NCBI GenBank assembly: GCA_000004695.1
Contig: CM000155.2
Location: 1-64,000, forward strand
DNA length: 64,000 bases
DNA from: Dictyostelium discoideum
Lineage: Eukaryota
Direction: 5' to 3'
Within the stretch, counting starts at the first letter, position 1. Each line of letters starts with the position of its first letter. Below, piece by piece: positions 3,196 to 44,215 of this stretch. The notes under the pieces were generated by a model, which saw nothing but the letters and a program-made list of their open reading frames with translations, did no database searches and had not been told where the DNA came from. Made by a program: the position numbers and the translations under genes.

Positions 3196-3325
3196 CCGAT
3201 TCATACTCCATTAATGCTGGAACCTGAGAGAGCAAATCTCTGAATTGTTCTACTTTATTTCTAACTAAAAATCTAAGGGTATTAATACGTGTGTTACCAC
3301 GTTTATTGTTGACCCATTTAACCAA
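2814..3325 (-). CDS. Two unassigned minus-strand ORFs (84 aa and 68 aa) between the DIRS copy and the gypsy fragment. They may be an orphan gene fragment or LTR/UTR-derived.
   Basis: ORFs 2814..3068 and 3119..3325. The second runs into a 61-nt poly(T) tract, read as K-run. No recognisable domain. Confidence 0.15.
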
Positions 3326-3447
3326 TTTGGATAGAACGACTTTATTTTCATTTGAATTTGTACCGCCAGAATTTAATATACAGGTCCTAATAAAACGAGA
3401 GGAAATCCTATGTAATATTTTTGTTTATTTAATTTAATTAGTCTCAT

Positions 3448-3487
<40 letters not shown>

Positions 3488-4066
3488 TCTTACCAGTTGC
3501 ATAGTATTGAGAAACACAATTTCTGTGCAATGTTTCATACACCAATATTTTTTCTACAATATTTGTTTTTGTGGATGACCTGCATTTGGTCTTTGAGGTC
3601 TTTGTTGTCTTCTGTAAAAGTTACTCACACTAATCTTCAATCCATTGTCACATTTGTTCAATCTTTAATCGAACTAGTCCAATCTTTAATCTAATGTCAT
3701 TTTTTAATTAATTCCACATAAAGGATAGAAAGAGTGAAAGGTTAATATCATAAAAGTAAACATACATAAAACAGATAATTAAAAGTAAGGGCGTTTTGAA
3801 ACTAAACCGAAAATCAGAATTTTTATTATTTTTTTTAAATTTTAATTTAATTTAATTTTTTTAATTTAATTTTTTATTTTTCGACTGAAAAAATAAAAAA
3901 TTAAAAAATAAAAAATTAAAAAATAAAAAATAAAAATTAAATGAAATATTTTTACATGGAGATGCGCGAATTTGTTATGTTGTTGAGCTCATACTAACTT
4001 TAAATTAATTTAGTTTTGAGTCTCTAACACCTTCCCCTTCCTTCTTTAGGCTAGCTCAGAGGTGGA

Positions 4067-5529: not shown

Positions 5530-6537
5530 ATGTCTACCACTGTTAATAATAATGAAGCCTCTAGTAGCAATACCTCTGCCTATAATAGCGCTGAATCCTT
5601 TGATTTAAGAATGAAGTCAATGGAGGATCAAATCAACAACCTTTCCTTAGCCTTTACAAGATTCATGAAAGAACCTATGTTCTCATCTAATACCAATTCA
5701 CGTAGCTAACCTTCTCATGATGACTCTGACACCGAGAATGAACAAAGTGAAGATGAATCAAGTAACAATGTCGATGTTCCAACCGATTATCAATTATCCG
5801 ATACTTTACTTGGTCAGTACAAACATATGGTAAACAATCAAGGTTTACTCGTCGAAGAAGAATGTATCCTCAAGAAAGATGAGATATCCGAATTGAATAA
5901 AGTATTCAACTTTCCATCTAACTTCCAAGTGAATGTCGCTCCATTCGGTACACCTGAAGGTATTACTGTATCATCCAACGTCAAGAACAATGATACTGAC
6001 TTGTTGATTGTCGAAAAGCGAATCAACGATAGCTTAAAACCTTTGCTTCTCATGTCAAGTATGTTATCATCTGATAGCTACAATGTCGATGTAGAACTTA
6101 TTAGTCATTTAACTCAGAGTGCAATCGTCTTAGCCGTTAATGCTCAAGCATCGCTTAGTCGTGTCCGTCGTAACAACATCGCTAAAGAAATCTATGGTTC
6201 TGAAGTACTCTTACCAATTAAGATCAATGATACACCAAAGATGTTTGATGAAACTGAAACTGAACGTGTAAGAAAGCTAGCCAAGTCAATCAGAAAGAAC
6301 AACGAAGCTAAACAATCATTGTTAAAATTGAATTATCATTCCAAGTCAAATGTCAAGAAATCAGTTAACTCAAGTGGTAATAACACTATAGGAAACAGTA
6401 GTAATAGTAAATCCAGTAGTGGGAGTAATGGACGATCTAACAACTTCAATGGATCACCAAGTAATGTTGCATCAGGTAGCAACAATATCAAGTCTGCAAA
6501 TGGTACCAACAACCGTTTTCAGAAGAACAAGAAGTAA
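5530..6537 (+). pseudogene. DIRS-like ORF1 (GAG-like) interrupted by an in-frame TAA at 5708-5710 (CAA in copy A)
   Basis: 5530 atg..MSTTVNNNEASSS, then 'cgt agc taa cct', versus copy A 'cgt agc caa cct'. The downstream ORF 5827..6537 is in frame. Confidence 0.7.
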
Positions 6538-7554
6538 ACTTACCAGTAGGTGGACGTCTGTTCCACCACAAACAAGTTTGGAAAGAATTGGGTCTTCCAA
6601 ACTTTTGTCAAGAGGTTGTAAATGGATTAATAGTCCATCTGCTTCCAAATTTCAAGCCGATGCTAAACCAATTCCGATTTCAATTCCAGAGGGTCCGAAA
6701 TCAGATTGCATCACAAAGGAAGTACAAGACTTGTTATTAGACGATGCTATCGAACAAGTACTTCCAAACCGTTATTCAAAGCGCGTTTTTTACTCCAACG
6801 TGTTTATGGTTCCAAAACCTGGAACGAATCTACATCGTCCAGTTCTAGATTTAAAAAGGTTAAACTCTTACATCAACAACCAATCATTCAAGATGGAAGG
6901 AATCAAGAATCTACCGTCAATGGTCAAACAAGGTTATTACATGGTAAAACTCGATATCAAGAAAGCCTACCTCCACGTGTTAGTAGATCCACAATACAGA
7001 GACTTATTCCGCTTCGTGTGGAAAGGTTCGCACTACCGTTGGAAAACAATGCCGTTCGGGTTATCGACAGCTCCTCGTATATTTACAATGCTGTTAAGAC
7101 CTGTACTTCGAATGTTGAGAGATATCAACGTATCCGTCATCGCTTACTTGGACGATCTATTAATCGTCGGTTCAACAAAAGAAGAATGTTTATCCAACCT
7201 CAAAAAGGCAATGGACTTACTTGTCAAACTAGGTTTCAAGTTAAACCTAGAAAAGAGTGTTCTCGAACCAACTCAATCAATTACGTTTCTCGGATTACAA
7301 ATCGATTCGGTATCAATGAAGCTTCTTGTTCCCAAAGAAAAGAAGAAAGTGTCATCAAAGAAATAAGAAACTTTTTAAAACTAGATTGTTGCTCCCCAAG
7401 AAAGCTTGCTGGTTTAAAAGGAAAGTTAATCGCACTGAAAGATGCAGTCATCCCATTCAGACTTTACACTCGTCGAACAAACAAGTTTCACTCTCAGTGT
7501 CTGAATCTAGCCAATGGAGATTGGGATCAATCATTTAAAAATTTAAATTATTAA
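6419..7554 (+). CDS. DIRS-like reverse transcriptase, overlapping the ORF1 end. RT domains lie in frame 6419..7366 and a thumb-like continuation in frame 6706..7554.
   Basis: YLDDLLIVG and the same motifs as copy A. The 3' ~190 bp (IRNFLKLDCCSPRKLAGLKGKL...) is absent from copy A. Confidence 0.7.
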
Positions 7555-8130: not shown

Positions 8131-8175
8131 TAATAATTAATTATTTTTATTTTTTTTTTTAAAAAATGTTTTGTG

Positions 8176-8290
8176 TGGGAATTGAACCCGTGACCTCCCT
8201 TCCTGAAGTTCCGGTGAAAAAATGTTTTATATGGGAATCGAACCCTTGACCTCTACCTTATTAATTTATCGCATTTCTATGTAAGCTATA
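8176..8290 (-). other. Two tRNA-derived 3'-half-like fragments with B-box-like motifs (gggttcaattccc, gggttcgattccc). Neither is an intact tRNA.
   Basis: Minus-strand reads '...gaggtcacgggttcaattccc...' and '...ggtagaggtcaagggttcgattccc...'. No complete cloverleaf can be drawn. Confidence 0.35.
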
Positions 8291-8379
8291 GACACTTTGA
8301 TAATTTTCATTGGAAATAGCTATAATATGAATGTTAAAAAACTTCCAAGTAAAAAAAAAAAAGAATGTGAAATAACTCT

Positions 8380-8815
8380 GTGGTTGTTGTATTATTATTG
8401 TTGCTTTATTATTGCTGTTGTTCTACTATTGATGTTGCTGTATTATTGATGTTGTATTATTATTGTTGCTTTATTATTGCTGTAGTTGTACTATTGATGT
8501 TGCTGTTTTATTGATGTTGCAGTCCTACCTGTTGTTGTGTTGTTATTATGTTGTAATTATTGTTGTTGTCGTACCTGTTGTGTTCAGCTACAGTGTTGTT
8601 ATTGTGTTGTTATTGTGTTGTAATTGATTTTGAAGTTGTTTTGTTATTGTGTTGTTATTGTGTTTGTTGTGTTGTTATTGTGTTTGTTGTGTTGTTATTG
8701 TGTTTGTTGTGTTGTTACTGTGTTGTTATTGTGTTTGTTGTTGTTTTATTTGTTTTTTGTGTTGTTATTGTGTTGTTATTGTTTTTTGTGTTGTTATTGT
8801 GTTGATTTCATTTTT
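8380..8815. repeat. Minisatellite of about 11-12-bp units (tgtgttgttat / tgttattgtgttgt)
   Basis: Dozens of tandem units. It generates spurious Cys/Val/Leu-rich ORFs (8560..8805, 8624..9079). Confidence 0.85.
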
Positions 8816-8980
8816 CAATTGATTTTGCAGTTGTTGTTGTACCTGTTATTGTTTTATTGTTTTATGGTTGCACCTGTTGTGGTTTTTATTATTGTTGCTA
8901 AAATTGTTGGTGTGTGTTGTAGTTGTTTGTTCTGTGTATATATTCATATGAATTCTATATTTTTAGCAAATTTACCTATA

Positions 8981-9660
8981 GATGGTCACTTTTTGAGTTA
9001 CAAATATTATGAAGAGTCAATTTTTTATTATGAAATTTGTTCAGTTGTAAAATTATTAATTGAAAAAAAAATTTTTTAGAATATTTAGATTTCTCAAAAG
9101 ACTATGAGCAAGGTATTTATAAAAATTATAAATCTGGAGAACAATTCAAAAAAATAAAAAATTCAATTTCAGATAAATTTATTTTATTAAGAATATTTAG
9201 TGACGGAATGAGTCATCAAGGTAGATCAGATTATACTATAATGGTGGATTTTGAAAATTATAATGGTCCATTTTTTAAAAATAACAAAATTGTTTTATTT
9301 ATTGTTCCAAAAGAATGGTTTCACAATATACATCAAACAATTAAAAAATTATTTTCAGCGCAATTTAATAATAAATTAATAATTAAAGATAATAATGGAA
9401 ATGATTATGAAATTATACCATATGGATTAACAATGGATATACCAGAATTTAGATCATCTTGTAGGATTAACCATTATAATTGCAATGAGTTCTCATGTCA
9501 TACATGTGATAAACTAAGAGGTGTCGATTATTTATTAAAAGAAGGAAATTATAGAAATCAAAAAGACATTATTGACTTTCACAATTCAAAACTAAATAAA
9601 CAAGATTTTTTAAATCCTCAAAATAAAATTTTAAACACAGCGAAGAAAAAACCACTTTAA
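8981..9660 (+). pseudogene. 5'-truncated, frameshifted paralog of the zinc-finger gene at 14428-15898 (C-terminal ~225 codons). The stop codon lies inside the TIR at 9636.
   Basis: The region DGHFLSYKYYEESIFYYEI..KKIF / EYLDFSKDYEQGIYKNYKSGEQFKKIKN..DYTIMVDFENY..GLTMDIPEFRSSCRINHYNCNEFSCHTCDK aligns to the 446-aa protein. There is a one-base frame change in an A10 run at about 9079. The final codons 'aac aca gcg aag aaa aaa cca ctt taa' are TIR sequence. Confidence 0.6.
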
Positions 9661-10391
9661 AGCAAATTTAAATTTAATTTAAAGCGAATTTAAAGTCCTG
9701 AATTAAAGCAATTTTTAAGGTAATTTTAAAGGTAATTTTTAAGGTTACTTTAAAATCACCTTAAAAATTACCTTTAAAATTACCTTTAAAATTACCTTTT
9801 TAATCGCTTTAAAAGCGAGGTCCTGAGTTCGAAGCCGTTATTTAACGGATAAAATTTTTAAAATTTTTTTTTAATTTTTCAAAAATTACCAAAAGGGATT
9901 CGATCCCCCGACCCTCTATCAAAGGATAGTCTCATCAACCATTACACCATTTGATTGCTTTGATGAAAATTTAAATATGATAGAATATTTTATCCCCATT
10001 TTTTTGATCTAAAATTAGATCTTTTTAATTAAAAACCTTAAATTTATACTTAAAGGAAATTTAAATTCACTTTAAATCTACTTTAAATCTACTTTAAATC
10101 CTATTTAAAATTAATTTAAAATAAATTTTAAAGGTATTTTTAAATATCTTAAAAATTATCTTAAAAATTACCTTAAAAATCACCTTTAAAATCACCTTTA
10201 AAATCACCTTTAAAATTGCTTAAAAATTTATTTTCAAGCAAATTTTAAAGGCATTTTTAAATATCTTAAAAATTACCTTAAAAATTACCTTAAAAATGAA
10301 TTTTTTAAAAGCGGCTTTAAATTCAATTTAAATCCAATTTAAATCAACTTTCCTTTAAATTTGCTTTAAAGGTGCATTTTTCTTTGCTGTG
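9636..10391 (+). mobile_element. MITE-like non-autonomous TIR element (756 bp) with 29-bp terminal inverted repeats and subterminal direct-repeat arrays
   Basis: The 5' end is 'cacagcgaagaaaaaaccactttaaagc' and the 3' end is 'gctttaaaggtgcatttttctttgctgtg'. The arrays are (ggtaattttaaa)n near the 5' end and (cacctttaaaat)n and (ctactttaaat)n near the 3' end. A second full copy is at 11946-12859. Confidence 0.7.
9889..9965 (-). other. Degenerate tRNA-Gln(UUG)-like module inside the MITE (anticodon-loop-like CTTTGAT, B-box-like gggggatcgaatccc). There is a second B-box-like 'gagttcgaagcc' at 9826-9837 on the plus strand.
   Basis: Minus strand reads 'gcaatcaaatggtgtaatggttgatgagactatcctttgatagagggtcgggggatcgaatccc'. 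It resembles the tRNA-Gln D-arm and anticodon arm, but the stems do not pair fully. Confidence 0.3.
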
Positions 10392-10474
10392 AAATTAGAA
10401 ACAGAAAAAAAAATGAAAAAAATCGGCATTAGAGATATGACAGATCTTGGGTAGAAAATTTAAAAATAAATTAT

Positions 10475-10879
10475 TTGTACTTACAACCTGATATTTTACA
10501 CAACATATTATTGGGTATTGTACAATGGGTTTTAAATTATATTTTCAAAAAATATAAGGATCAAATTACAATTTTTATAAAAAAATTAAAAGAAGCTAAA
10601 ATCATTCCAGATCATTTACCACCATCAGAATCTTTATTTGGTGTAAAAACAAGAAAAGGTAGAGAGAATAGAAGCATATTATATTATATTTTATTTTTTA
10701 CTAAATCAAATGTATCAAATGATGATTTCTTATTATTAGAAGAAATGTTTCAGATTACTTTTTTATTATATCAAGATTCTTTCGACGAAGATGATTTGGA
10801 TAAAATAAATTATTTAGTTAAAAATAAGTATACTTTATATGTATATTTAAAAAGTATACTTTATAATAATACTTATTAA
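10475..10879 (+). CDS. Orphan 134-aa ORF inside the TIR element interior. Possibly a fragment of an element-encoded protein.
   Basis: ORF MYLQPDILHNILLGIVQWVLNYIFKKYKDQ...; no recognisable domain. It is preceded by a short disrupted ORF (MKKIGIRDMTDLG*). Confidence 0.2.
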   Translation: MYLQPDILHNILLGIVQWVLNYIFKKYKDQITIFIKKLKEAKIIPDHLPPSESLFGVKTRKGRENRSILYYILFFTKSNVSNDDFLLLEEMFQITFLLYQDSFDEDDLDKINYLVKNKYTLYVYLKSILYNNTY

Positions 10880-10950
10880 GTACACTTTATAATAGTACTA
10901 TTTACATTCCTACTTTAAAGATGCTTTTAAGTATTTTTTTCGCCCCTGTG

Positions 10951-11945
10951 ATATATATATATTTAATATAAAATATAATTTAATAATTTAAATTTTTAAT
11001 TTATATTATCATATATATATATATATTATGAAATTTGGACGACAGTATTTAAGAAACCACCAGATTTTTCACCAATGATTCTTTTATCGTAGAAGGTATC
11101 TACAGTATCATTTGATTTCCAACGACCCATCTTCTTGACAACGTGGAACGGAACGTTATTGGACAACAGCAGAGAAGCCATAGCGGAACGGGTAGAGTGA
11201 GATTTGAACTTGCAATATCAATACCTGACTTTGAGAGTGTTGATAGTACAATTGAGTTAATATCATTAACTTGGAGCGGTTCACCCTCATTCTTAATAAA
11301 GACAAAGTCACCCGAATGGGGCTTTCTTCTTCCTTTAGAGGCTCTAAGGTATGTTGCAAGGTGGCGAACAGGGCATACTTGAGAGTTAGTATCATCTAAC
11401 GATGTTAATTCTAAGATTGAAACAACACCACTTCTTTGTTCTTTAGCATTAATAACTGGACCCTTGATTGAGTCAGGAGTAATAATGAGACCTTTGAACG
11501 ACCACTTCACCAAGTCTGATGATCTTGCTAAACCAAACATTTTACAGAGAACAAGTGTCTTGTTTAATAGCGCAGTGTATGTGTACTTGGGGATGACTTT
11601 GATAGTAGATAAGTGCTTGAATACTTGATTTGCATCCCATATCTCTTTATACTTTGCAGATGAAGGGCGCAACTTGTGAATACCAGTCATAATTTTTGTG
11701 ATGAATGGATCATTAACAATATCAGTTTGATTCCTAAGGAGTAACAACTGATTCAACATAGAACGATGACCGTTAATTGTGGAGAAGGCTAACGGAGGTT
11801 TGTGCTTGAACAGATGTGTAAGATAATCCATGACAACAACTAAGGTAATGTTTGCTGGATTCAAAGAGTTCAAAGTACAAAAATTGCGGAATCTTGTATA
11901 ACTGGAGCTATATACTTTGAGAGTTGAAGGTTCCCAAGACTTCAT
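10951..11945 (-). mobile_element. DIRS-1-like 3' fragment: tyrosine-recombinase ORF remnant plus an internal-complementary-region-like segment. It lacks a terminal repeat.
   Basis: 10955-11000 matches the ICR-like segment of copies A and B (395-433). 11001-11028 resembles the terminal-repeat tip. The minus ORF 11100..11945 has LVLCKMFGLARSSDL (recombinase box-I-like R) and then changes frame. Confidence 0.55.
11100..11945 (-). pseudogene. DIRS-like tyrosine recombinase (ORF2/YR) remnant, frameshifted near its 3' end
   Basis: 281-aa ORF with GLARSSDL. A downstream alternative frame (11156..11395) carries the ...YALFATLQHTL... and ...SLYPFRYGFSA... segments. Confidence 0.45.
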
Positions 11946-12859
11946 TACACAGCAAAGAAAAAACCACCTTTAAATTCGCTTTAAATTAAATTTAAATTTG
12001 CTTTAAAGTCCTGAATTAAAGCAATTTTAAAGGTAATTTTAAAGGTAATTTTAAAGGTAATTTTTAAGGTTACTTTAAAATCACCTTAAAAATTACCTTT
12101 AAAATTACCTGTACAATTACCTTTTTAATGGCTTGAAAAGCNNNNNNNNNNNNNNNNNNNNNNNNNNNNNNNNNNNNNNNNNNNNNNNNNNNNNNNNNNN
12201 NNNNNNNNNNNNNNNNNNNNNNNNNNNNNNNNNNNNNNNNNATTACCTTTAAAATTACCTTTTTAATGGCTTTAAAAGCGAGGTCCTGGGTTCGAAGCCG
12301 TTATTTAACGGGTAAATTTTTTAAAATTTTTTTTTTTAATTTTTCAAAAAAATTACCAAAAGGGATTCGATCCCCCGACCCTCTATCAAAGGGTAGTCTC
12401 ATCAACCATTACACCATTTGATTGCTTTGATGAAAAATTTAAAAATGATAGAATATTTTATCCCCATTTTTTTGTTCTAAAATTAGATCTTTTTTATTAA
12501 AAACCTTAAATTTATGTTTAAAGGAAATTTAAATTCACTTTAAATCTACTTTAAATCTACTTTAAATCCTATTTAAAATTAATTTAAAATAAATTTTAAA
12601 GGTATTTTTAAATATCTTAAAAATTATCTTAAAAATTACCTTAAAAATCACCTTTAAAATCACCTTTAAAATCACCTTTAAAATTGCTTAAAAATTTATT
12701 TTAAAGCAAATTTTAAAGGCATTTTTAAATATCTTAAAAATTACCTTAAAAATTACCTTAAAAATGAATTTTTTAAACGCGGCTTTAAATTCAATTTAAA
12801 TCCAATTTAAATCAACTTTTCTTTAAATTTGCTTTAAAGGTGCATTTTTCTTTGCTGTG
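11946..12859 (+). mobile_element. Second MITE-like copy of the CACAGC-TIR element. It contains a 99-nt assembly gap at 12142-12240.
   Basis: It starts 'cacagcaaagaaaaaaccacctttaaattcgc' and ends 'gctttaaaggtgcatttttctttgctgtg'. The interior is collinear with 9636-10391, including the tRNA-like module at about 12350-12430. Confidence 0.7.
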
Positions 12860-12978
12860 TAACAGCTCAGCTGTTTTTGTATTTGTTGTACGAGCGAAGG
12901 ACATTACATGAGATTGGAAAGTTGAATAATCCCCAGTTTCCAACGTTGTTGAATCTGGATTGGTATCGACTCTACTGA

Positions 12979-14060
12979 CACAGCAAAGAAAAATGCACCT
13001 TTAAAGCCAATTTCAAGCAAATACAATTTAAATTTGCTTTAAATTGGCTTTAAATTTGCTTTTTAAAAAGGTAATTTTAAAGATATTTTTAAGGTCATTT
13101 AAAATTACATTAAAAATGACCTTTTAAATTTATTATAAAGCGGTTTTTAAATAATGTTTTAATCACTTTATAATAAATTTAAAAAAGTTATTTTTAATGT
13201 AATTTAAAATTACTTATCAATCCTTTTTTAAGCTTTTATTAATTATATTTTTTAAAATACATTTTAAATGCATTTTAAATACATTTCAAATCAATTTTTA
13301 CACTATTTATTTCAAATTTATTAAAAAAAAAAAAATAAAAATAAGAAAATAAAAAAAAAAAAAAAAATTAAGAAAATTAAAAAAAAAAAAAACTAAAAAG
13401 ATAACCAAATTAATTTTAATTCTTTATTTATTTGTTTCAGTGGCAATTGAATTCTATTATTATTATTTTTATTAATTAATAATAAAAAAGTGTTTCAGTT
13501 GCCTTGGGTTTTATATTATTTTATTTTAAATTTTACTTCTCATTTCAAAAAGCGAAAAATATCAAAAAAAAAAAAAAAAATTTAATTATTTGTTTTGCAT
13601 ATTTATATTATAAGTATAAACATACATATAAAAAAAGATTTTTTATTTTTTATTTTTTATAATTAATAAACAATTAACGAGTGCACATGTATATTATTGC
13701 ATTAGTGTAGTTTTACAATAAATTGGGCAGATTTTATAGTTTTTTTTTTTAATATTTTAAAAAGAAAAAGGTATAGACAGGGTCATAGGTTCCCCGTCAT
13801 TTTTTGAAAATGGGGTATATCCCTCTAAATATAAAATTTTAAGTACTAAATCATATATCTACTTGCTATAATGCTAAAATTTGAATTAAATGAAAAAAAA
13901 AAAAAAAAAAACGTAAAAACTCGAGGAAAAAAAAAAAAAAAATATTATTTTTAATTTCCAGCCAGCAAACAAAATGAATTTAAATAACATATCATGCATT
14001 AATTGCAGAGAAAAATTAAAGAATTTTAAAAATATTATTATTCATTATATTATGCATAAA
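12979..14060 (+). repeat. Left long inverted arm (includes duplicated gene start ATG at 13975 and upstream region)
   Basis: Reverse-complement identity to 15813-16894 as read by eye over several stretches. Confidence 0.65.
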
Positions 14061-14464
14061 TTTTATCCCCATTTTTTTGTTCTAAAATTAGATCTTTTTT
14101 ATTAAAAACCTTTAATTTATGTTTAAAGGAAATTTAAATTCACTTTAAATCTACTTTAAATCTACTTTAAATCCTATTTAAAATTAATTTAAAATAATTT
14201 TTAAAGGTATTTTTAAATATCTTTAAAATAAATTTTTAAGCAATTTTAAAGGTGATTTTAAAGGTGATTTTAAAGGTGATTTTTAAGGTAATTTTTAAGA
14301 TAATTTTTAAGCAAATTTTAAAGGCATTTTTAAATATCTTAAAAATTACCTTAAAAATTACCTTAAAAATGAATTTTTTAAACGCGGCTTTAAATTCAAT
14401 TTAAATCCAATTTAAATCAACTTTTCTTTAAATTTGCTTTAAAGGTGCATTTTTCTTTGCTGTG
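14061..14464 (+). mobile_element. MITE 3' half (collinear with 9975-10391) ending in TIR 14436-14464. It abuts the zinc-finger gene 3' end.
   Basis: Sequence 'ttttatccccatttttttgttctaaaattagatc...gctttaaaggtgcatttttctttgctgtg'. Confidence 0.65.
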
Positions 14465-15898
14465 AAGGGTTCGACCCACCCTCTGTCCACACCTTTGATA
14501 CCAATATCTTTTGCTTTTTTTTCCCATACTTTTTTTAATTCTATATCAGCATTTAGTTCAGCATAATTTGGTTTGGTGGAGTGAAAATTTGTAATATCTT
14601 CTTGTTTTCTTAATGCAAATAAATAAACCATCTCTTGGTTTGTCACATGTGTGACATGCATATTCATTTGAATTATGTCCATTAAGTTTACACGATGCTC
14701 TAAATTCTGGAATATCCATTGTCAGTCCAAACGGTACAACATCTATTTGTTCATTTTCAATAATTAAATTAAAGCCATTACCAATAAAAGATGAAAACAA
14801 TGCCCTAATTGTTTGATGAAAATTAAGTAACCAATCATTTGGTACTACAAATAATAATAATTTATTATTTTTAAATTCATTTCCAATATAATTTTCTATA
14901 TCCAGCATTATAGTATAATCTTTCTTGTTTTGACACTGCATACTATCAGTGAATATTCTAAGTAAAACAATTTTATTTTTATTTTTATTTTTTAAATCTT
15001 TAAATTGTTGACCACTTTTATAATTTGTATAAATTCCAGTTTCAAAATCTGTATCAAAATCTATTCTTTCAAAAAATTGCTTTTTATTTAATAAAGTTTC
15101 TAATACTTTTTTAATTTCAAAATAAAAAATTGAGTGATCATAATTTTTATTTATAAATGTTTCTCCTTTTATTTGAAAATCTTCCATAAATAATTTATCC
15201 ATATATTGAGGTGTGTATCTTATTTGATTTAAATTGGTTTTATTTTTGTCAATAAAACTTTTAAATTTTTCAAGTAGCTTTAAACTTATTGAGTTTTCAA
15301 TTCCCAACATTAAAAATTCAATTTCAGTTTCATTTAATTTTTTTTTTGATTTTTCATTATCTAAATTATTATTTAGATTATTATTTATTGGTTCGTTTTG
15401 AGCATTTTCATTTTCATTATTTTCATTATTTTCATTATTAATGTTTGCTTCATTTTCATCTATTCTAATTTCATTGTTTTCATCTTCACTATTTACCAAC
15501 CCAATTATATCATGATTTTCTTCATTATCAATTGTTTGATTATTTTCATTATTTTCATTATTTTCTTGATAAAAAATTTCATCTTGGTTTTGGTTACATA
15601 AATGTTTACATGGGTCATCTGGATCATTTGTTGGATATTTTATTTTTTCACCAGTAATATCCATTAATTTTTTATAAAAGCTATCTCTTTTTTGATTATT
15701 TGTAATAATTTTATTTTGTTCATTTTTACATTTTTTGGTGTTTAAATGTCCATTTACATCATAAAATTGTTTATAAGAACGGTAACATGCAAGACAAAAT
15801 GGACATATATTTTTATGCATAATATAATGAATAATAATATTTTTAAAATTCTTTAATTTTTCTCTGCAATTAATGCATGATATGTTATTTAAATTCAT
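14428..15898 (-). CDS. Zinc-finger protein of the TIR element, about 490 aa when reconstructed. The N-terminus has C2H2/BED-like fingers (C-x2-C-x12-H-x3-H, then C-x2-C..H-x5-C), then an acidic Asn/Glu-rich linker, then a conserved C-terminal domain ending ..CHTCDK. There is a +1 frameshift near 14640. The last 11 codons and the stop are encoded by TIR and subterminal sequence.
   Basis: ORF 14558..15898 (446 aa) plus alternative frame 14428..14682. The frame switch is supported by alignment to paralog 8981-9660 (VDYLLKEGNYRNQKDIIDFHNSKLNKQDF versus VYLFALRKQEDITNFHSTKPNY). The terminal codons are 'aca gca aag aaa aat gca cct tta aag caa att taa'. Confidence 0.55.
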
Positions 15899-16894
15899 TT
15901 TGTTTGCTGGCTGGAAATTAAAAATAATATTTTTTTTTTTTTTTTTCCTCGAGTTTTTACGTTTTTTTTTTTTTTTTTTTTCATTTTATTCAAATTTTAG
16001 CATTATAGCAAGTAGATATATGATTTAGTACTTAGAATTTTATATTTAGAGGGATATACCCCATTTTCAAAAAATGACGGGGAACCTATGACCCTGTCTA
16101 TACCTTTTTCTTTTTAAAATATTAAAAAAAAAAACTATAAAATCTGCCCATTTTATTGCAAAACTACACTAATGCAATAATATACCTGTGCACTCGTTAA
16201 TTGTTTATTAATTATAAAAAATAAAAAATAAAAAATCTTTTTTTATATGTATGTTTATACTTATAATATAAATATGCAAAACAAATAATTAAATTTTTTT
16301 TTTTTTTTTTGATATTTTTCGCTTTTTGAAATGAGAAGTAAAATTTAAAATAAAATAATATAAAACCCAAGGCAACTGAAACACTTTTTTATTATTAATT
16401 AATAAAAATAATAATAATAGAATTCAATTGCCACTGAAACAAATAAATAAAGAATTAAAATTAATTTGGTTATCTTTTTAGTTTTTTTTTTTTTTAATTT
16501 TCTTAATTTTTTTTTTTTTTTTTATTTTCTTATTTTTATTTTTTTTTTTTTAATAAATTTGAAATAAATAGTGTAAAAATTGATTTGAAATGTATTTAAA
16601 ATGCATTTAAAATGTATTTTAAAAAATATAATTAATAAAAGCTTAAAAAAGGATTGATAAGTAATTTTAAATTACATTAAAAATAACTTTTTTAAATTTA
16701 TTATAAAGTGATTAAAACATTATTTAAAAACCGCTTTATAATAAATTTAAAAGGTCATTTTTAATGTAATTTAAATGACCTTAAAAATATCTTTAAAATT
16801 AACTTTTTAAAAAGCAAATTTAAAGCCAATTTAAAGCAAATTTAAATTGTATTTGCTTGAAATTGGCTTTAAAGGTGCATTTTTCTTTGCTGTG
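15813..16894 (-). repeat. Right long inverted arm (contains the gene 5' end, promoter region and terminal TIR)
   Basis: Reverse complement of 12979-14060. Confidence 0.65.
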
Positions 16895-17141
16895 TACCTT
16901 AAAAATCACCTTTAAAATCACCTTTAAAATCACCTTTAAAATCACCTTTAAAATCACCTTTAAAATTGCTTAAAAATTTATTTTAAAGCAAATTTTAAAG
17001 GCATTTTTAAATATCTTAAAAATTACCTTAAAAATTACCTTAAAAATGAATTTTTTAAACGCGGCTTTAAATTCAATTTAAATCCAATTTAAATCAACTT
17101 TGCTTTAAATTTGCTTTAAAGGTGCATTTTTCTTTGCTGTG
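16895..17141 (+). mobile_element. MITE 3' fragment (collinear with about 10170-10391) ending in TIR
   Basis: The (cacctttaaaat)5 array, then '...gctttaaaggtgcatttttctttgctgtg' ending at 17141. Confidence 0.6.
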
Positions 17142-17290
17142 GTAATTTTAAAGGTAATTTTTAAGGTGATTTTAAAGTAACCTTAAAAATTACCTTTAAA
17201 ATTACCTTAAAAATTGCTTTAATTCAGGACTTTAAATTCGCTTTAAATTAAATTTAAATTTGCTTTAAAGGTGGATTTTTCTTCGCTGTG
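17142..17290 (-). mobile_element. Inverted MITE 5' fragment ending in TIR (17262-17290). It abuts a gene-3'-end-like ORF.
   Basis: Reverse complement of 9636-9790. The adjacent minus ORF 17265..17468 ends ...NQPTQRRKIHL*, with its last 8 codons in the TIR. Confidence 0.55.
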
Positions 17291-19255: not shown

Positions 19256-19405
19256 CTAAAGATAATAGTGTATTAGCCTCAATAGATTTAAAGAATATTG
19301 AAATGATTCAAATACCACCAGAACAACAAAGTTCTGAAAAGCCACAAGATGTAAATACAATGATTGAAAGAATAGCTGTTGATGATGATAATGATGATGA
19401 TAGTA

Positions 19406-19466
<61 letters not shown>

Positions 19467-20297
19467 TAATAGTAGTAATATTGAAAATAGTATAAATAAT
19501 GTTGAAGATGATAATGATGATGATGATGATGTTTTTATGCAAGGATCGAATGGTTATGAAAGAATAGGTAGTAATTTACAACATAACCTACAACACACAA
19601 CACATACATCCACCACAACAAATAATGGTATCACAACAACAACCACCACCACCACTATAACAACACCCAATGGTGTACAACAACAACAGCAACAAACAAC
19701 CTATTCAACATACTCAAATACAGGCTCACCATTGTTGGTGGGAAATAACCCTACAGCAGGATTAACAACTGCATCTGGTTATGTTCCATCTCCTTTTGCA
19801 ACTAATTTCTTCCCAGAAACTGACCAATTGTCAGCACAAAATTTAATAGATTTTTTGGACCAACTTTATTATCCAACCTTCTCTAATGATATATTTCAAC
19901 AGTATTCTGTTGTTGTACCAGATTCATTTAGTGGAAGTTTCAAAGATGCCCTTAACTTTGCAAAGAAAAGTGGCAAGTTGGTTTTAACTTATTTACACAG
20001 TGATAACCAAATCTCTCTCTCCTTTATTTTGGATATACTAAGGAGTGAGGAGGTTTTAGAATTCATTAAAGAAAACTTTGTATTTTGGGTAGCAAAAATT
20101 ACACCAGAGGCTGAATCTTTCCTATTTTCATTGGTACAATTTGAAAGCTATCCTATCGTTGTCACTCTTTCAAATTTAGGTTCACCAGAGATATTGGAAG
20201 TATCTCAAGGTTGTACAGAAAAAGAAGTATTTTTCCAAAATATGGTAAATCATTTGACTTCAAACCAAGTAGATTTAGATAGAGTTAGATTAGAAGA
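19256..20297 (+). CDS. FAF1-like UBX protein, exon 2 (N/D-rich linker, UAS/thioredoxin-like domain). The 3' splice site is ambiguous (19256 or 19262).
   Basis: ...KLVLTYLHSDNQISLSFILDILRSEEVLEFIKENFVFWVAKITPEAESFLFSLVQFESYPIVVTL (UAS-like). Exon ends ga|GTGAGT. Confidence 0.55.
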
Positions 20298-20367
20298 GTG
20301 AGTAATTTTTAAAAAAAAAAAAAAAAAAAAAAGAGTCCAAATTTACTAATGTATTATTATTAAATAG

Positions 20368-32010: not shown

Positions 32011-32052
32011 CTATTTTTTTTTTAAAAAAAAAAAAAATTAGTTATCTTTGTG

Positions 32053-32113
<61 letters not shown>

Positions 32114-32136
32114 AAATCTCTTTAAAAAATACTTAC

Positions 32137-33679
32137 TATCTGGGAAAGAAGAGTGGCAATTGCTGCATACAAAACATTCTGAATGAAAAGTATTATTCAT
32201 TGCTGAAACAACAGTACCATAGATTGGTTTTTCACAAACATTACAGATTTTGTGAACAACGAATTTTCTATCATAACAAACTTCACAAAATGGTTGACCT
32301 TCATGAGAAACAAAGTTTTGGATACCAGTATTACATTCAACACATGTAAAATGTTCAATATGCCATGCTTGATCTAATGCTTTGAAATGATTTCCTTCAA
32401 TGCCTCCACCACATCTTGCACATACTAATTCACCATTTTCACCATCCAATTTTCTTGGTGATTTATTGAGACTATTGGATGAGTTTTGATGTGAAATTGG
32501 TGGTGGATTTGGTTTATGTGAATCTTGTTCTTTATGAATATGATTTGTAGCTGTTGTTTTTTGTTGATGTTGATGTTGATGTTGTTGATGTTGATGTTGA
32601 TGTTGTATTTCAGGTGCTGGTGTTGGTGCAGAATGAGTATGTTTATGTTCTGGTTCTTTTGGAATGGTTGGTGGTGGAATTGGAACTGGTGATGGAGTTG
32701 GTTTTGCATCATTGTTTTCATTATTTGGTTGAGGTTTTGCAATTGGTGGTGGAATATTGAAAACTGCAGGTGTTTTTGGTGATGATGTATTAGTTGGAGT
32801 GGTTGGATTTGAAGTATTAGCTGGTATAGTGGATGATGCTGGCACTGGTGCTGGTGTAGAAGCATTGACAGCAGCCGGTTTTTTAGCGGATGAAACTACT
32901 GGAGCAGGTTTCATTGTTGGTGTAGCAGAAGATGTAACAACCTTCTTTGGTGGTGCCACTTGAACTGATGCACTTTGAACTACTTTACCAATTGGTGATA
33001 TTGGGCCAGAGCCTGGTTTGACCCAATTGGCTGGTGTGCCACCTGCTGGTTTTGAAATATTACTAGTTGTGGTAACTTTTGGTGGTGCAGTAGTAGTTGA
33101 TGATGATGATGATGATGTGGTATGAGTAGTGGTGGTTGGTGTATGTTTAACAGTTGTAGAAGTGGCAGTAGTAGTAATAGTATTTGTAGGAGTATGTTTA
33201 GTACCATCACCTGGTAAAATTGTATGTTCACTAACAACACCACTATCATTTGCTGAAGGTTGTGGCCCATTTGAATCATGGCTTGGTTTTTGGATTGGTG
33301 GTGGTATATCTATAACTGGTTTTGGTGGTGATGACGATGATGATGATGATGATGATGATGAAGTATTGGTGACAGGTGGAGTTGGTTTGGCAGTTGGTTC
33401 AGATGTAGTTCCAGCTGGTTTAGAAACTGGTGCACTTGGTTTAGCTGATACCTTGCTAATGACTGGAGCCTTTGAAATTACTGGTGCTGGTCTTAAAACA
33501 CCTGTAGATTGTTTAACAACTGGTTTTGAAATTGATATTGATGGTTTTGCAGTTGGTGTTGCGGTTGGTGCTGATGGCTTGAGTGGAGTTTGAATTGGTT
33601 TTGTTGTTGTGGTGGTTGTTGTGGAAGTAGTGTTTGTTGATGATACAGTTGTTGATGGTGTTGATTCTGCTGCAGTTCC
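32137..33679 (-). CDS. WH2/LIM protein, exon 3 (about 514 codons). It has a long Ser/Thr/Pro-rich mucin-like region, a His/Gln tract, and LIM1 with the first half of LIM2.
   Basis: The frame is open by manual translation from GTAAEST... through ...MAPPKKVVTSS.. (ORF 32042..32959) to ...CFVCSNCHSSFPD, then a|GTAAGT. LIM text: CARCGGGIEGNHFKALDQAWHIEHFTCVECNTGIQNFVSHEGQPFCEVC. Confidence 0.55.
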
Positions 33680-35063: not shown

Positions 35064-36752
35064 TTATATATTAACATTAATTTCTTCATAATCTTCATGA
35101 TTAAACTCTTCCTCATCTTCTTCGTCCTCACTACCATGATAAATAACACTAACACTTTCTTCATCATATGATGCCTCTCTTTCAGAGCTTTGAAGTGGTG
35201 ATTTTTGTTGACCTATACTAATGGTACTTCTATTTACGTTATTAGTTGGTTTAATATTTAAACTACTTCCAGTTTTGGTAGTAGTTGAGGTATTGGGTTG
35301 TGTTGTAGTTGGAGTTGTTGGAGTAGTTTTCGATATATTATCACCAATTTTTTTATTTGGAGATGGTGTTGTTGGTTTTGGTGGAGGATTTTTATTATTA
35401 TTTTGTTGTTGTTGTTGTTGTTGTTGTTGAAGGAAAGGAGAGCTTACTTTACCAACCTTAGTAGTAGTATTATTATTATTATTATTATTATTAATAGGAG
35501 AGGGAGCTATAGTTCCATTGCTAACATTATTTGCAGGTGGATATCTATTTAAAACACTTTTATTACCAGGCACTCTTCTTGTTGAACCAGCAGCACCACC
35601 AGCACCGCTACTATGAGAAGGTGGTGGTGGTTGTGGATTTTTGTTACGCATGATGGAAGCGGTTTTTGTATTTGAATTTAAGATGACAACAGAACCCTTT
35701 AAAGATTCAGCGTTTCTAACATTTGTTAAAGCTTGAGAGGCTCTAGTTGGTACACTTGAGACCATTTTACTACCACTACTATTTCTTTGTTGTTCTTGTT
35801 CTTCGAGTTGTCTAATTTTTTCAGCACGCTTCTCTTTGAGTAGAGGTATTGATTCATTGACTAATTTTTGTAGAATTTGTTGAGAGGAACCTTTGAGAAT
35901 AAAAGGATGACTTAACAATTGTTGAGCAGAAGGACGAAGTGCAGGATTCATTGAGAGACATTGCTTAACAAAGTCATTAAACTCTGGTGACCAATCAGAG
36001 GGTATCTTAAGGGAAGGTGGTGGTTGATGAGGTATGGTAAAGATTACACGTGAAGGTGGTACATCGAATCTTGGTGGTACCAATTCGGCGATTTCAATTG
36101 CGGTGATACCCAATGACCAAATGTCAGCCTTTTGATCATAACCTTGACCCATAATGATCTCTGGTGCCATCCAATAGGGTGAACCAATAACAGTGTTCAT
36201 TTTTTGACCTTGTTCAGCGATCGTTGATACACCGAAATCGGCTAATTTAGGTAAACCTTCTTCGTCCAATAAAACGTTACCAGCTTTGATATCACGATGA
36301 GTGGTACGTTTTGAATGAAGATAAACCAATCCCTTTACAACACCTGCACAAACTGCTGCAATCTCTTCCTCTATCAATCTTTTACCACATAACTCTATAA
36401 TATCCAATAATGAACCACCCTTACAATATTCCATAACAATTAAAAGCATAGATGACTTTAAATAACAACCTTTATACTCTACAATGTATGGACAATCCAT
36501 TGATTCCTTCAAAATGTCAATCTCTTTCACTAAATTCAAATTGGTCTCTACATCATCTGCATTAACCTCTACAAATTTACATGCTATCAATCTATTGCCA
36601 TTGGATTCTCTATCCTTCTTTTTCATCCATCTACATGCACAAACTGTACCAAATGATCCTGATCCAACTACTTCTACAATTTGAAATATTGCTTCTGGAT
36701 CATCCTTTGATATTCTTGAAATAAATAAATTTTCAACCGAATCTGAATTCAT
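35064..36752 (-). CDS. STE20-family serine/threonine protein kinase (MST/Hippo-like catalytic domain plus S/T/N/Q-rich tail), single exon, 562 aa
   Basis: GSGSFGTV..ACKFV, HRDIKAGNVLLDEEGLPKLADFGVS, GSPYWMAPEII (STE20 hallmark), DIWSLGITAIE. Confidence 0.85.
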   Translation of the reverse strand: MNSDSVENLFISRISKDDPEAIFQIVEVVGSGSFGTVCACRWMKKKDRESNGNRLIACKFVEVNADDVETNLNLVKEIDILKESMDCPYIVEYKGCYLKSSMLLIVMEYCKGGSLLDIIELCGKRLIEEEIAAVCAGVVKGLVYLHSKRTTHRDIKAGNVLLDEEGLPKLADFGVSTIAEQGQKMNTVIGSPYWMAPEIIMGQGYDQKADIWSLGITAIEIAELVPPRFDVPPSRVIFTIPHQPPPSLKIPSDWSPEFNDFVKQCLSMNPALRPSAQQLLSHPFILKGSSQQILQKLVNESIPLLKEKRAEKIRQLEEQEQQRNSSGSKMVSSVPTRASQALTNVRNAESLKGSVVILNSNTKTASIMRNKNPQPPPPSHSSGAGGAAGSTRRVPGNKSVLNRYPPANNVSNGTIAPSPINNNNNNNNTTTKVGKVSSPFLQQQQQQQQQNNNKNPPPKPTTPSPNKKIGDNISKTTPTTPTTTQPNTSTTTKTGSSLNIKPTNNVNRSTISIGQQKSPLQSSEREASYDEESVSVIYHGSEDEEDEEEFNHEDYEEINVNI

Positions 36753-38540: not shown

Positions 38541-39012
38541 TTATTCATCTTCTAAAATATCTCTAGCATCATAATATTCTTGAAGTAAACGATAGATATA
38601 GGATGGATTATGACCACCTATATTTGTTATGAATAAACTAACGAGATCTGGTGCAACATAATCAAAGGTTGGATTATAACTGTGAACATTTTCTAAAAAT
38701 TCTGCTTCTTCAAATTTTAAATATTCACCTGGTGAACCAAAATTATTGAATGTATCTTGATCATATGCATATAATGGACAGAGTTTATAAAGACCAGTAC
38801 AAACCACTATTGGTACAGAGTGATATTTAGCAGCTACAGCCAATGTATGTGTACCAGAGGTAGCAATTAAACCACCATTGGCCATTACTGCATGTGTACC
38901 AATAATAACTTTATTAACACGTGACATCATTGCAAATACTGCTGAATCTGTAATTAATGTTGTATCGATTGATGCTTTTGATAATGAAATTGCTGTTTTT
39001 TGACCTTCAAGT
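38541..39012 (-). CDS. eif2b2: eIF2B-beta-like subunit, exon 2 (IF-2B core)
   Basis: 3' splice site aaaag|a. LEGQKTAISLSKASIDTTLITDSAVFAMMSRVNKVIIGTHAVMANGGLIATSGTHTLAVAAKYHSVPIVVCTGLYKLCPLY. Confidence 0.65.
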
Positions 39013-39132
39013 CTTTTATTTTTTTTTTTTTTTTTTTTTTTTTTTATTTTTAGAATTAAAAATAATAGAGAATTAATAAATTTTTTTAAAATAAATGATT
39101 GATTATAGAATTTTAAAAATTTTGATACATAC

Positions 39133-39827
39133 GATGGAGCAGTTTCAACAACAATAACTTTAAAACTTCTTTTTCTAGCAGCTTCTTTTAAGAATTCTTC
39201 AACGGTTCTTGAACAACCTAAAGTCATGATGGTTTCATTTGAATGAATATGTTCAATTGCTTGTTCAGCAACATTTCTATGAAGACCTTCTAATTCATCA
39301 ATTAATTCATTGATACTATCCATGATTGCAGCTTTTAATCTTGGGAATGTTTCAGTGAAATCGATATCTTCTTGATCATCAATTGGATCGTCTTGTAACA
39401 TAACATTACTATATTTATTATTTTTATTGATATTACTACTACTATTAATATTATTATTATTATTGTTGTTGTTGTTATTACTGGTAGTAGTTTCAAAATC
39501 ATCATCATCATAATCATCATTATTTAAACCATTCTTTTTATTTCTAAAAAATGTTAAATATTCTTCTCTAATTATAAATAATACTCTTCTAACTATGTTA
39601 CCAATACAAAATTCTAATGGTTGTGCATTCATTAACTTTTTACCAATTATTTTGATTTGATCAATCAATGATTTTGCATTTCCCCATTTACCTTTATGTA
39701 CCCATTGTCTAAGTAATTCTGCAGAGGCTCTTGATACTTGATATGATCCAACAACTGTTTTTCTCTTTAAATGTAATATAAATGATTCTAATTGTTTCTC
39801 TAATTGTTTTTCCGCTTGTTTCTCCAT
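39133..39827 (-). CDS. eif2b2: eIF2B-beta-like translation initiation factor subunit (IF-2B family), exon 1
   Basis: MEKQAEKQLEKQLESFILHLKRKTVVGSYQVSRASAELLRQWV...VIVVETAPS, then tc|GTATGT. It has a Dictyostelium-style poly-N insert. Confidence 0.6.

Positions 39828-42043: not shown

Positions 42044-44215
<2,172 letters not shown>

Follow-up and report, generated by a model that had tools for sequence, protein, structure and literature searches.

The first ~18 kb of the 64,000-nucleotide stretch of Dictyostelium discoideum DNA analysed in this work (contig CM000155.2, positions 1 to 64,000, referred to here as the window) is a mosaic of transposons, in which a short repeat of ~760 bp is present in the form of two full copies and three fragments. 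The original prediction, made from the sequence of the window, described these repeats as MITE-like (akin to small transposable elements bounded by inverted repeats), with termini resembling those of the CACTA/En-Spm transposons, and did not recognise them as any described Dictyostelium transposon. The results presented here point instead to a miniature member of the DDT family of D. discoideum DNA transposons. The copies and fragments of this miniature element in the window are as follows.

9636-10391, forward strand: full copy 1, 756 bp, with AA flanks (9634-9635 and 10392-10393)
11948-12859, forward strand: full copy 2, with TA/TA flanks (11946-11947 and 12860-12861)
14061-14464, forward strand: fragment comprising the 3' 404 bp, recognised by repeat comparison
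16895-17141, forward strand: fragment comprising the 3' 247 bp, 97% identical to the reference copy
17142-17290, reverse strand: inverted fragment comprising the 5' 149 bp, 97% complementary to 9646-9784

The two full copies and the three fragments are real, and for copy 1 and all of the fragments the coordinates are the same as those originally given. For copy 2, its existence and its end at 12859 were also confirmed, but its start is at 11948 rather than 11946, since the nucleotides 11946-11947 (TA) are a part of the target-site duplication. Copy 1 has inserted into the transposase reading frame of a DDT-B-like element, and copy 2 into the beginning of the reading frame for a DIRS-1 tyrosine recombinase. 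The latter copy is interrupted by exactly 100 N (12142-12241), and the sequences on both sides of this run overlap by ~38 nt with 3 mismatches, so that the gap is an unmerged contig join (i.e., an assembly artefact) and not missing DNA; once this artefact is discounted, the true length of copy 2 is ~774 bp. In the list of open reading frames (ORFs) of the window, none of at least 80 amino acids started inside the miniature element. The comparison sequences used in this study consisted of five loci (L001-L005) from two other D. discoideum assemblies, which were retrieved via their transposase homologues. These loci contain five further full copies that are 95-98% identical, bringing the miniature copies in the window and loci to seven (749-759 bp), and also a second miniature subfamily that is 83% identical over its full length. 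In the fragment 14061-14464, ~85 bp of the 12-mer array (approximately 14218-14300) are inverted, unlike in all full copies, and this inversion is marked by the flipped strand of the ACCTTTAAA motif at 14245-14277.

The termini of the miniature element are of the form CACAG...CTGTG, and every terminus was observed to read CACAG. The terminal 15-mer CACAGCAAAGAAAAA has nine occurrences (with at most one mismatch), all of them between 9.6 and 17.3 kb, compared to 0.72 expected. The main structural features of the element, given for copy 1, are listed below.

9636-9662, forward strand: 5' terminal inverted repeat (CACAGCGAAGAAAAAACCAC-TTTAAAG)
9717-9786: near-perfect 70-nt hairpin (stem of ~29 bp and more) formed by three GGTAATTTTAAA-type units and their inverted copies
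10040-10364, forward strand: 3' subterminal arrays, consisting of 11-bp CTTTAAATNNA units and of 12-bp (A/T)CACCTTTAAAA and ATTACCTTAAAA units
10365-10391, reverse strand: 3' terminal inverted repeat (reverse complement CACAGCAAAGAAAAATGCACCTTTAAA)

The terminal inverted repeat is imperfect and 27 bp long, with 25 of its 27 positions matching in copy 2; the originally predicted repeat is thus real, and its length is roughly the 29 bp that had been claimed. The predicted subterminal arrays were also found to be real. They are made up of 11-12-bp units built on the core motif ACCTTTAAA, a sequence that also makes up the inner part of the terminal inverted repeat (one half of it); these units occur in both direct and inverted orientation, and start-to-start spacings of 11 and 12 nt dominate. 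This motif is present 39 times in the window in comparison to 3.7 expected, and 36 of these 39 occurrences are in the region from 7.9 to 17.3 kb, within the elements. The hairpin at 9717-9786 has a folding energy of -39.2 kcal/mol versus -12.4 +/- 2.9 in shuffled sequences (z = -9.1). In a search of copy 1 against Rfam at a permissive threshold, just sub-threshold matches to microRNA hairpins were obtained (the best of them mir-548, with 38.7 bits against a 90-bit cut-off), and we read these as generic similarity between AT-rich palindromes and not as family membership. The sub-threshold matches in the hairpin region (9714-9789) are to MITE-derived microRNA families. Dictyostelium transposons (thug-S) are documented sources of small RNAs, and Dicer might therefore accept this hairpin as a substrate.

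Evidence for mobility comes from the sequences that flank the elements. Identical 2-nt flanks were found for 15 of 17 element pairs of this group, for which the chance probability is ~1e-13, and the duplicated dinucleotides are varied (TA, AA, TT, GG, AG, AT, TC, and GA). Additionally, for five insertions paralogous empty sites could be identified, and in each case the occupied site differed from the empty one by exactly the element plus 2 bp. For copy 1, the empty sites are provided by uninterrupted paralogues of the transposase gene (L002 7269-7353, L004 9263-9347, and L003 9793-9877), which contain four A's where the occupied site has 3+3; the empty site reads ...aaaattttaaaattagaaacag... 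and the window ...aaaattttaaa[element]aaattagaaacag.... The target-site duplication is therefore 2 bp in length and shows no sequence preference, and not 3 bp as was anticipated from the resemblance to CACTA elements. Duplications of 2 bp are typical of Tc1/mariner, and several of those observed here are TA, as one might expect if these elements belonged to a different 2-bp-duplicating superfamily (a Tc1/mariner or PIF/Harbinger relative) and their CACTA-like features were coincidental. However, the duplications are not confined to TA but also include GG, AG, TC, GA, AA, and TT, which speaks against Tc1/mariner; the termini (CAC...GTG) also argue against Tc1/mariner or Harbinger, and no domain of either group was detected in Pfam scans of the window ORFs and eight homologues. 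Hence, we consider a placement in such a superfamily to be highly improbable.

The window and L002 share a coding region that is 99% identical, and two insertions that are found in L002 have their empty sites in the window (8757-8814 and 8830). The absence of these insertions from the window at this level of identity argues for recent activity. Several larger relatives with CACAG termini are also present in the loci. The other non-autonomous types comprise two size classes, one of ~2.5-2.9 kb, in which DDT-B-type CACAGGGGCG termini are combined with (AAGTATACTTAAT)n arrays, and the other of ~2 kb with CACAGCGAAGAAAATCACACC termini.

L001 8926-11381, L001 11516-14057, L003 1656-4148, L005 9470-12325, L003 15120-17039, and L005 13996-16076: ~2.5-2.9-kb and ~2-kb non-autonomous relatives

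Five of these six larger relatives are flanked by perfect 2-bp duplications (the flanks of L003 15120-17039 are AC/GC), they are often nested in one another, and the ~2-kb subfamily contains no internal ORF of at least 50 amino acids. Based upon these observations, the miniature element is a mobile non-autonomous DNA transposon, and its original description as MITE-like is borne out by its inverted repeats, the constant duplication with its empty sites, the lack of coding capacity and the presence of an autonomous partner.

Two types of coding elements with related ends are present in the window, which we will refer to by their transposases as the P0002 and P0013 types. Like the hairpin and the tRNA-like boxes of the miniature element, they were not mentioned in the original prediction.

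12979-14060, forward strand: 5' part of the autonomous partner (P0002 type, probably DDT-A), with the terminus, a leader of ~1 kb and the first 32 codons
14465-16894, reverse strand: second, inverted 5' part of this partner, carrying the transposase's 446 N-terminal codons
7909-10950, forward strand: internally deleted sister element (P0013 type, probably DDT-B), with AT/AT flanks, which hosts copy 1

At the 3' end of the miniature element, 29 of 30 positions are identical to the coding element's 5' end (12979), and this terminus is present at both ends of the region 12979-16894. The ORF at 14558-15898 (reverse strand; 446 codons, frameshifted at its end) is 100% identical to P0001 and 84% identical to the 772-amino-acid protein P0002. 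A P0002-type copy in L005 (6904-17187, GA/GA flanks) is 4582 bp long after removal of two nested insertions. Positions 514-756 of the miniature element correspond to 248-1 of this element (73% identity) and positions 1-158 to 4582-4425 (77%), i.e., in inverse orientation, and the central ~230 bp of the miniature element have no counterpart in it. The sister element has the termini CACAGCGGCG... and ...CGCCCCTGTG, and the remnants of its transposase are located at 8946-9635 and 10392-10825; the P0013 type shows ~43% amino-acid identity to the P0002-type ORF of the window. A full copy of the sister element with its gene is found in L003 (5978-12222, TA/TA flanks).

Based upon these correspondences, the miniature element would consist of both subterminal regions, inversely oriented, of the ~4.6-kb autonomous element (probably DDT-A), with a core of ~230 bp connecting them. 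The DDE transposase of the autonomous element would recognise the CACAG termini together with the many ACCTTTAAA sites of the inverted repeat and arrays. The binding of ACCTTTAAA would presumably involve the N terminus of the transposase, where two Cys/His clusters (C-x2-C...H-x3-H and C-x2-C...H...C) could be read by eye. Cutting at the CACAG ends would excise the element, and the targets for its reinsertion, with a 2-bp staggered cut, would mostly be other transposons within DIRS-1-rich clusters of the centromere type. The miniature element would thus be mobilised in trans by its autonomous partner. In this scheme the pairing of the protein with its sites, the two names (DDT-A, DDT-S), and whatever part the tRNA-like core described below may play are likewise inferred.

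A second gene of ~250 amino acids, which contains an intron and for which no Pfam family is on record, was observed in the autonomous copies downstream of the transposase gene, and it is a candidate for an accessory (possibly TnpA-like) protein.

L004 10596-11561, L005 10757-11667, and L001 8646-14503: second, ~250-amino-acid gene

An imperfect (GTTGTTATT)-type repeat at 8560-9079, in the DDT-B-like element's leader, gives rise to spurious Cys/Val/Leu-rich ORFs of 81 and 151 amino acids, and the empty sites of the L002 insertions lie in or just past this tract. The arrangement of the region 12979-17290 was also examined. The arms of the two head-to-head 5' parts (12979-16894) are 94% complementary over ~1.1 kb and they are joined via a miniature fragment. 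A simple nested insertion was considered for 12979-17290, but its flanks do not pair and this model was therefore rejected; the joints with the miniature fragments at 14060/14061, 16894/16895, and 17141/17142 also do not fit simple nesting. The head-to-head layout, these joints and the ~85-bp inversion may have resulted from aberrant transposition, from recombination between the palindromic arrays, or from mis-assembly.

The relationship of the transposase to other proteins was examined by means of profile searches. For the largest ORF of the region, 29 homologues were obtained at E <= 0.001, and every one of them belongs to an assembly of D. discoideum or of D. cf. discoideum. When the window ORFs and eight full-length homologues were scanned directly against Pfam, no transposase family was identified, even at E <= 1. 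A profile of nine family members was searched against 1.8 billion representative proteins, and it retrieved D. discoideum relatives followed by about twenty remote proteins (E = 1e-6 to 1e-3) that match over the C-terminal 250 positions. Some of these remote matches, reached by the profile at E = 7e-5 to 2e-4, bear the Pfam domain Transposase_21 (tnp2, the En/Spm TnpD family) above its threshold. In hhalign comparisons with two single Transposase_21 proteins, values of 87% and 94% were obtained, and in a comparison with an alignment of twelve remote matches the value was 99.6% (E = 5.7e-24, 473 columns), which is partly circular because the twelve members were chosen by the query profile. This last alignment reaches well past the region behind the original matches, and the invariant residues of both sets are paired in it. 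The putative signature residues, numbered for P0013, are listed below with their counterparts.

D293: LRIFSDG versus LNTDG
D371: TMDIPEF versus VADAPA
C391-x2-C394: C(2)C
L471-H472: LH
H597-x3-H601: H(3)H
E622: predicted catalytic E

D293, D371, C391, C394, and E622 are invariant in the family alignment, and the LH and HxxxH motifs are gapped in one or two truncated models. The order D, D, C(2)C, LH, H(3-4)H, E is the transposase pattern of the CACTA/Mirage/Chapaev (CMC) group, members of which have CA..TG termini and duplications of 2-5 bp (PMC4079192, PMC12730594). The CACAG...CTGTG termini, the 2-bp duplication, the signature motifs and the transitive homology are all features of membership in CMC, or in CMCT, which also takes in Transib. 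The evidence that tells against this placement is that the Transposase_21 link is transitive, i.e., it runs via intermediate sequences with no direct Pfam match, that only three of the twelve members of the comparison alignment (all drawn from the matches of the query profile) bear the Pfam domain, and that the AlphaFold model from the 9-sequence alignment, with a confidence score (pLDDT) of 38, is too poor for use. Overall, the sequence comparisons indicate that the transposase is a divergent, distant member of the CMC group. The predicted likeness to CACTA/En-Spm elements consequently holds at the superfamily level, by virtue of the transposase profile link, the motifs and the subterminal arrays, but it does not extend to CACTA termini or to a 3-bp duplication.

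The central part of the miniature element contains sequences resembling parts of tRNA genes, and related sequences are present in the 5' subterminal region of the sister element.

9893-9965, reverse strand: tRNA-like core of copy 1, with A box TGGTGTAATGG (9949-9939) and B box GGATCGAATCC (9906-9896)
9815-9845, forward strand: piece resembling a tRNA 3' half, with the B-box-like sequence GAGTTCGAAGCC (GGTTCGAAGCC in copy 2), which is conserved in both miniature subfamilies
12361-12433, reverse strand, and 12282-12312, forward strand: counterparts in copy 2 of the core and of the 3'-half-like piece, respectively
8173-8300, reverse strand: two tandem units resembling tRNA 3' halves, with B boxes GGTTCGATTCC and GGTTCAATTCC, in the DDT-B-like 5' subterminal region

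The A and B boxes of the core are 43 nt apart (start to start), which is the spacing found in tRNA genes, and they are followed by TTTT. The core is also the best conserved part between the miniature subfamilies, with 33-38 matches per block of ~40 positions versus 31 of 40 at the termini. No tRNA was detected by ARAGORN or at the Rfam gathering thresholds in the window and loci, nor by the permissive Rfam search of copy 1, and folding of the core gave no cloverleaf (z = -0.2); as judged from its sequence, it is not a functional-looking tRNA gene. The canonical A/B boxes followed by TTTT, together with the fact that much of the element consists of short tandem units, could suggest that these repeats are a tRNA-derived retroposon (a short interspersed element, SINE), a non-mobile satellite or a segmental duplication, and not a DNA transposon. 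This is barely credible in view of the inverted termini, the sharp boundaries, the constant 2-bp duplication and the precise empty sites. The miniature element has neither an A-rich tail nor duplications of variable length, and instead of forming tandem arrays its copies are scattered over different hosts, namely a DIRS-1 gene and a transposase gene. A tRNA-derived SINE was also rejected as a candidate on the ground that, although A and B boxes are present, the element ends in inverted repeats and its duplication measures 2 bp.

The known DNA transposons of D. discoideum belong to the Tdd, DDT, and thug families, which constitute 0.5, 0.9, and 0.1% of the genome, respectively (PMC5633606), and DDT elements make up ~20% of the DIRS-rich centromeres (PMC2665215). 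The DDT family goes back to Glockner et al. (2001; as cited in PMC5633606, PMC2665215, and PMC9012585), its named members are DDT-A, DDT-B, and DDT-S (PMC4559204, PMC9012585), and the DDT transposases have been described in a review as unlike any known transposase (PMC5633606). The published DDT-B consensus is 5471 bp long, and in a rearranged DDT-B fragment, in which nt 428-1 are joined to 3291-1646, a TRE5-A element lies 46 bp upstream of an A/B-box motif (PMC9012585). As the fragment ends at nt 428, this places the motif near nt 382. The outer tRNA-like unit of the DDT-B-like copy in the window starts at ~nt 387 of the element (reverse strand), which is close to this position and consistent with the identity of the two, although it does not prove it. 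By published descriptions, the P0013 type is thus probably DDT-B, the P0002 type DDT-A and the miniature element DDT-S, the last of these because its ends are common with those of the P0002 type. DDT-S is presumably a short element. Taking these results together, we estimate at about 0.85 the probability that the repeats are a ~760-bp non-autonomous cut-and-paste transposon that is a miniature DDT member, most likely the catalogued DDT-S. The original suggestion that this is not a described Dictyostelium transposon is probably wrong, as DDT is indicated by the genomic context, by published work and by the agreement of the sister element with the features of DDT-B.

Several points must be set against this identification. 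The names have been assigned by published descriptions and not by deposited sequences; the sister copy in L003 is 6245 bp long, or ~5.7 kb without an internal duplication, in comparison to the 5471 bp of the published DDT-B; no intact autonomous copy is present in the window; and transposition is known here from its sequence traces alone. Neither the literature searched for DDT-S and DDT-A nor that searched by the AX4 gene identifiers of the homologues yielded a description of the termini. As identity with catalogued DDT was judged by descriptions and not by a reference sequence, the miniature element could also be a transposon of the same group that is neither DDT-S nor thug-T and was either missed or lumped under DDT. 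The presence of at least two 83%-identical miniature subfamilies, and of non-autonomous types of ~2 and 2.5 kb, represents more diversity than the three DDT names provide for. However, an element this abundant lies in repeat clusters that have already been surveyed exhaustively (PMC2665215, PMC5633606), DDT-S has been named in the literature as a DNA transposon of the DDT family (PMC4559204), and one gene model has been reported in which thugS occurs together with Tdd-4 homology (PMC3386910), a weak indication that thug should be placed elsewhere. An uncatalogued element is thus unlikely. Very probably, the element itself is already known, and its copies here are those of a catalogued transposon in a centromere-type repeat cluster.

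If the identification as DDT is correct, the additions made by this work are modest, and they consist of the link to the CMC superfamily, a duplication length of 2 bp and, in the short member, a tRNA-like core that is conserved. These are unstated in the DDT papers cited here by their PMC numbers. The core of the short element extends the single published observation of an A/B-box motif in DDT-B (PMC9012585), and it bears on a possible entry route of tRNA-gene-targeting retrotransposons into the centromeric clusters. One may speculate that the A/B-box module is a functional, selected part of DDT and not captured junk, and that DDT is the first-described amoebozoan CMC lineage, with an unspecific 2-bp duplication, but in this full form the proposal is rather doubtful. 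If true, the module would recruit TFIIIC/TFIIIB, and the centromeric DDT copies would be entry sites for RNA polymerase III, chromatin landmarks, or decoy landing pads for TRE retrotransposons. No TRE element adjoined any of the copies in the 150 kb that were examined.

The G+C content across the stretch is 16-35%, and in the window, as in each of the five loci, these elements form mosaics with genes of DIRS-1 or of long terminal repeat retrotransposons. Further fragments of the DDT-B-like 3' region (88% identity) are found at 2723-2885 and 3308-3613 (reverse strand), amid the upstream DIRS-1 sequence. The transposon cluster of the window stops near 18 kb, and ordinary genes start at ~19 kb and continue toward 64000; the window therefore crosses the boundary between the cluster and euchromatin. 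The other genes identified are as follows.

6419-7366 and 11100-11945: DIRS-1 reverse-transcriptase and tyrosine-recombinase ORFs, with Phage_int_SAM_5 in 11100-11945 (reverse strand)
19303-20301: FAF1-like gene
32042-32959: LIM gene
35064-36752: protein kinase gene
38541-39827: eIF2B subunit gene
42158-44215: polycystin-like channel gene

In comparison with known systems, the element group shares with En/Spm the CAC... termini followed by an A-rich stretch, the ~12-bp subterminal repeat arrays in both orientations, a DDE transposase related to Pfam Transposase_21, and the occurrence of non-autonomous deletion derivatives. In the original prediction, the termini were described as close to the 13-bp terminal inverted repeat of En/Spm. 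The differences are that the termini here are CACAG and not CACTA/CACTG, that the duplication is 2 bp instead of 3 bp, that the similarity of the transposases is visible just through intermediate sequences, that the host is an amoebozoan, and that no TnpA-like protein was identified here, the candidate for it being the second, ~250-amino-acid gene. Mirage elements make 2-bp duplications. With Mirage/ESTA, the group has in common CA..TG termini and a short duplication inside the 2-5 bp range of the CMC group, but its duplication shows no preference for TA, whereas that of ESTA is TA, 2 bp (PMC12730594). Tdd-4/Tdd-5 (Ginger2) are likewise DNA transposons in the same clusters of the same genome; the Tdd elements have inverted repeats of 260-297 bp, 5-bp duplications and an integrase-like transposase (PMC2836005), and they are excluded by the 2-bp duplication, the 27-bp repeat and the lack of an rve/integrase domain in the Pfam scan of the homologues. 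With regard to DDT, nothing is demonstrably different on published descriptions, and the points of agreement are the same species and DIRS-1-rich centromere-type clusters, coding members of ~5 kb accompanied by a short one that is non-coding, the position of an A/B-box motif (around nt 380-390 in the sister element that resembles DDT-B), and a transposase without a direct match to known families. For DDT, the link to the CMC group provides a place in the taxonomy of transposons and a set of predicted catalytic residues that can be tested.

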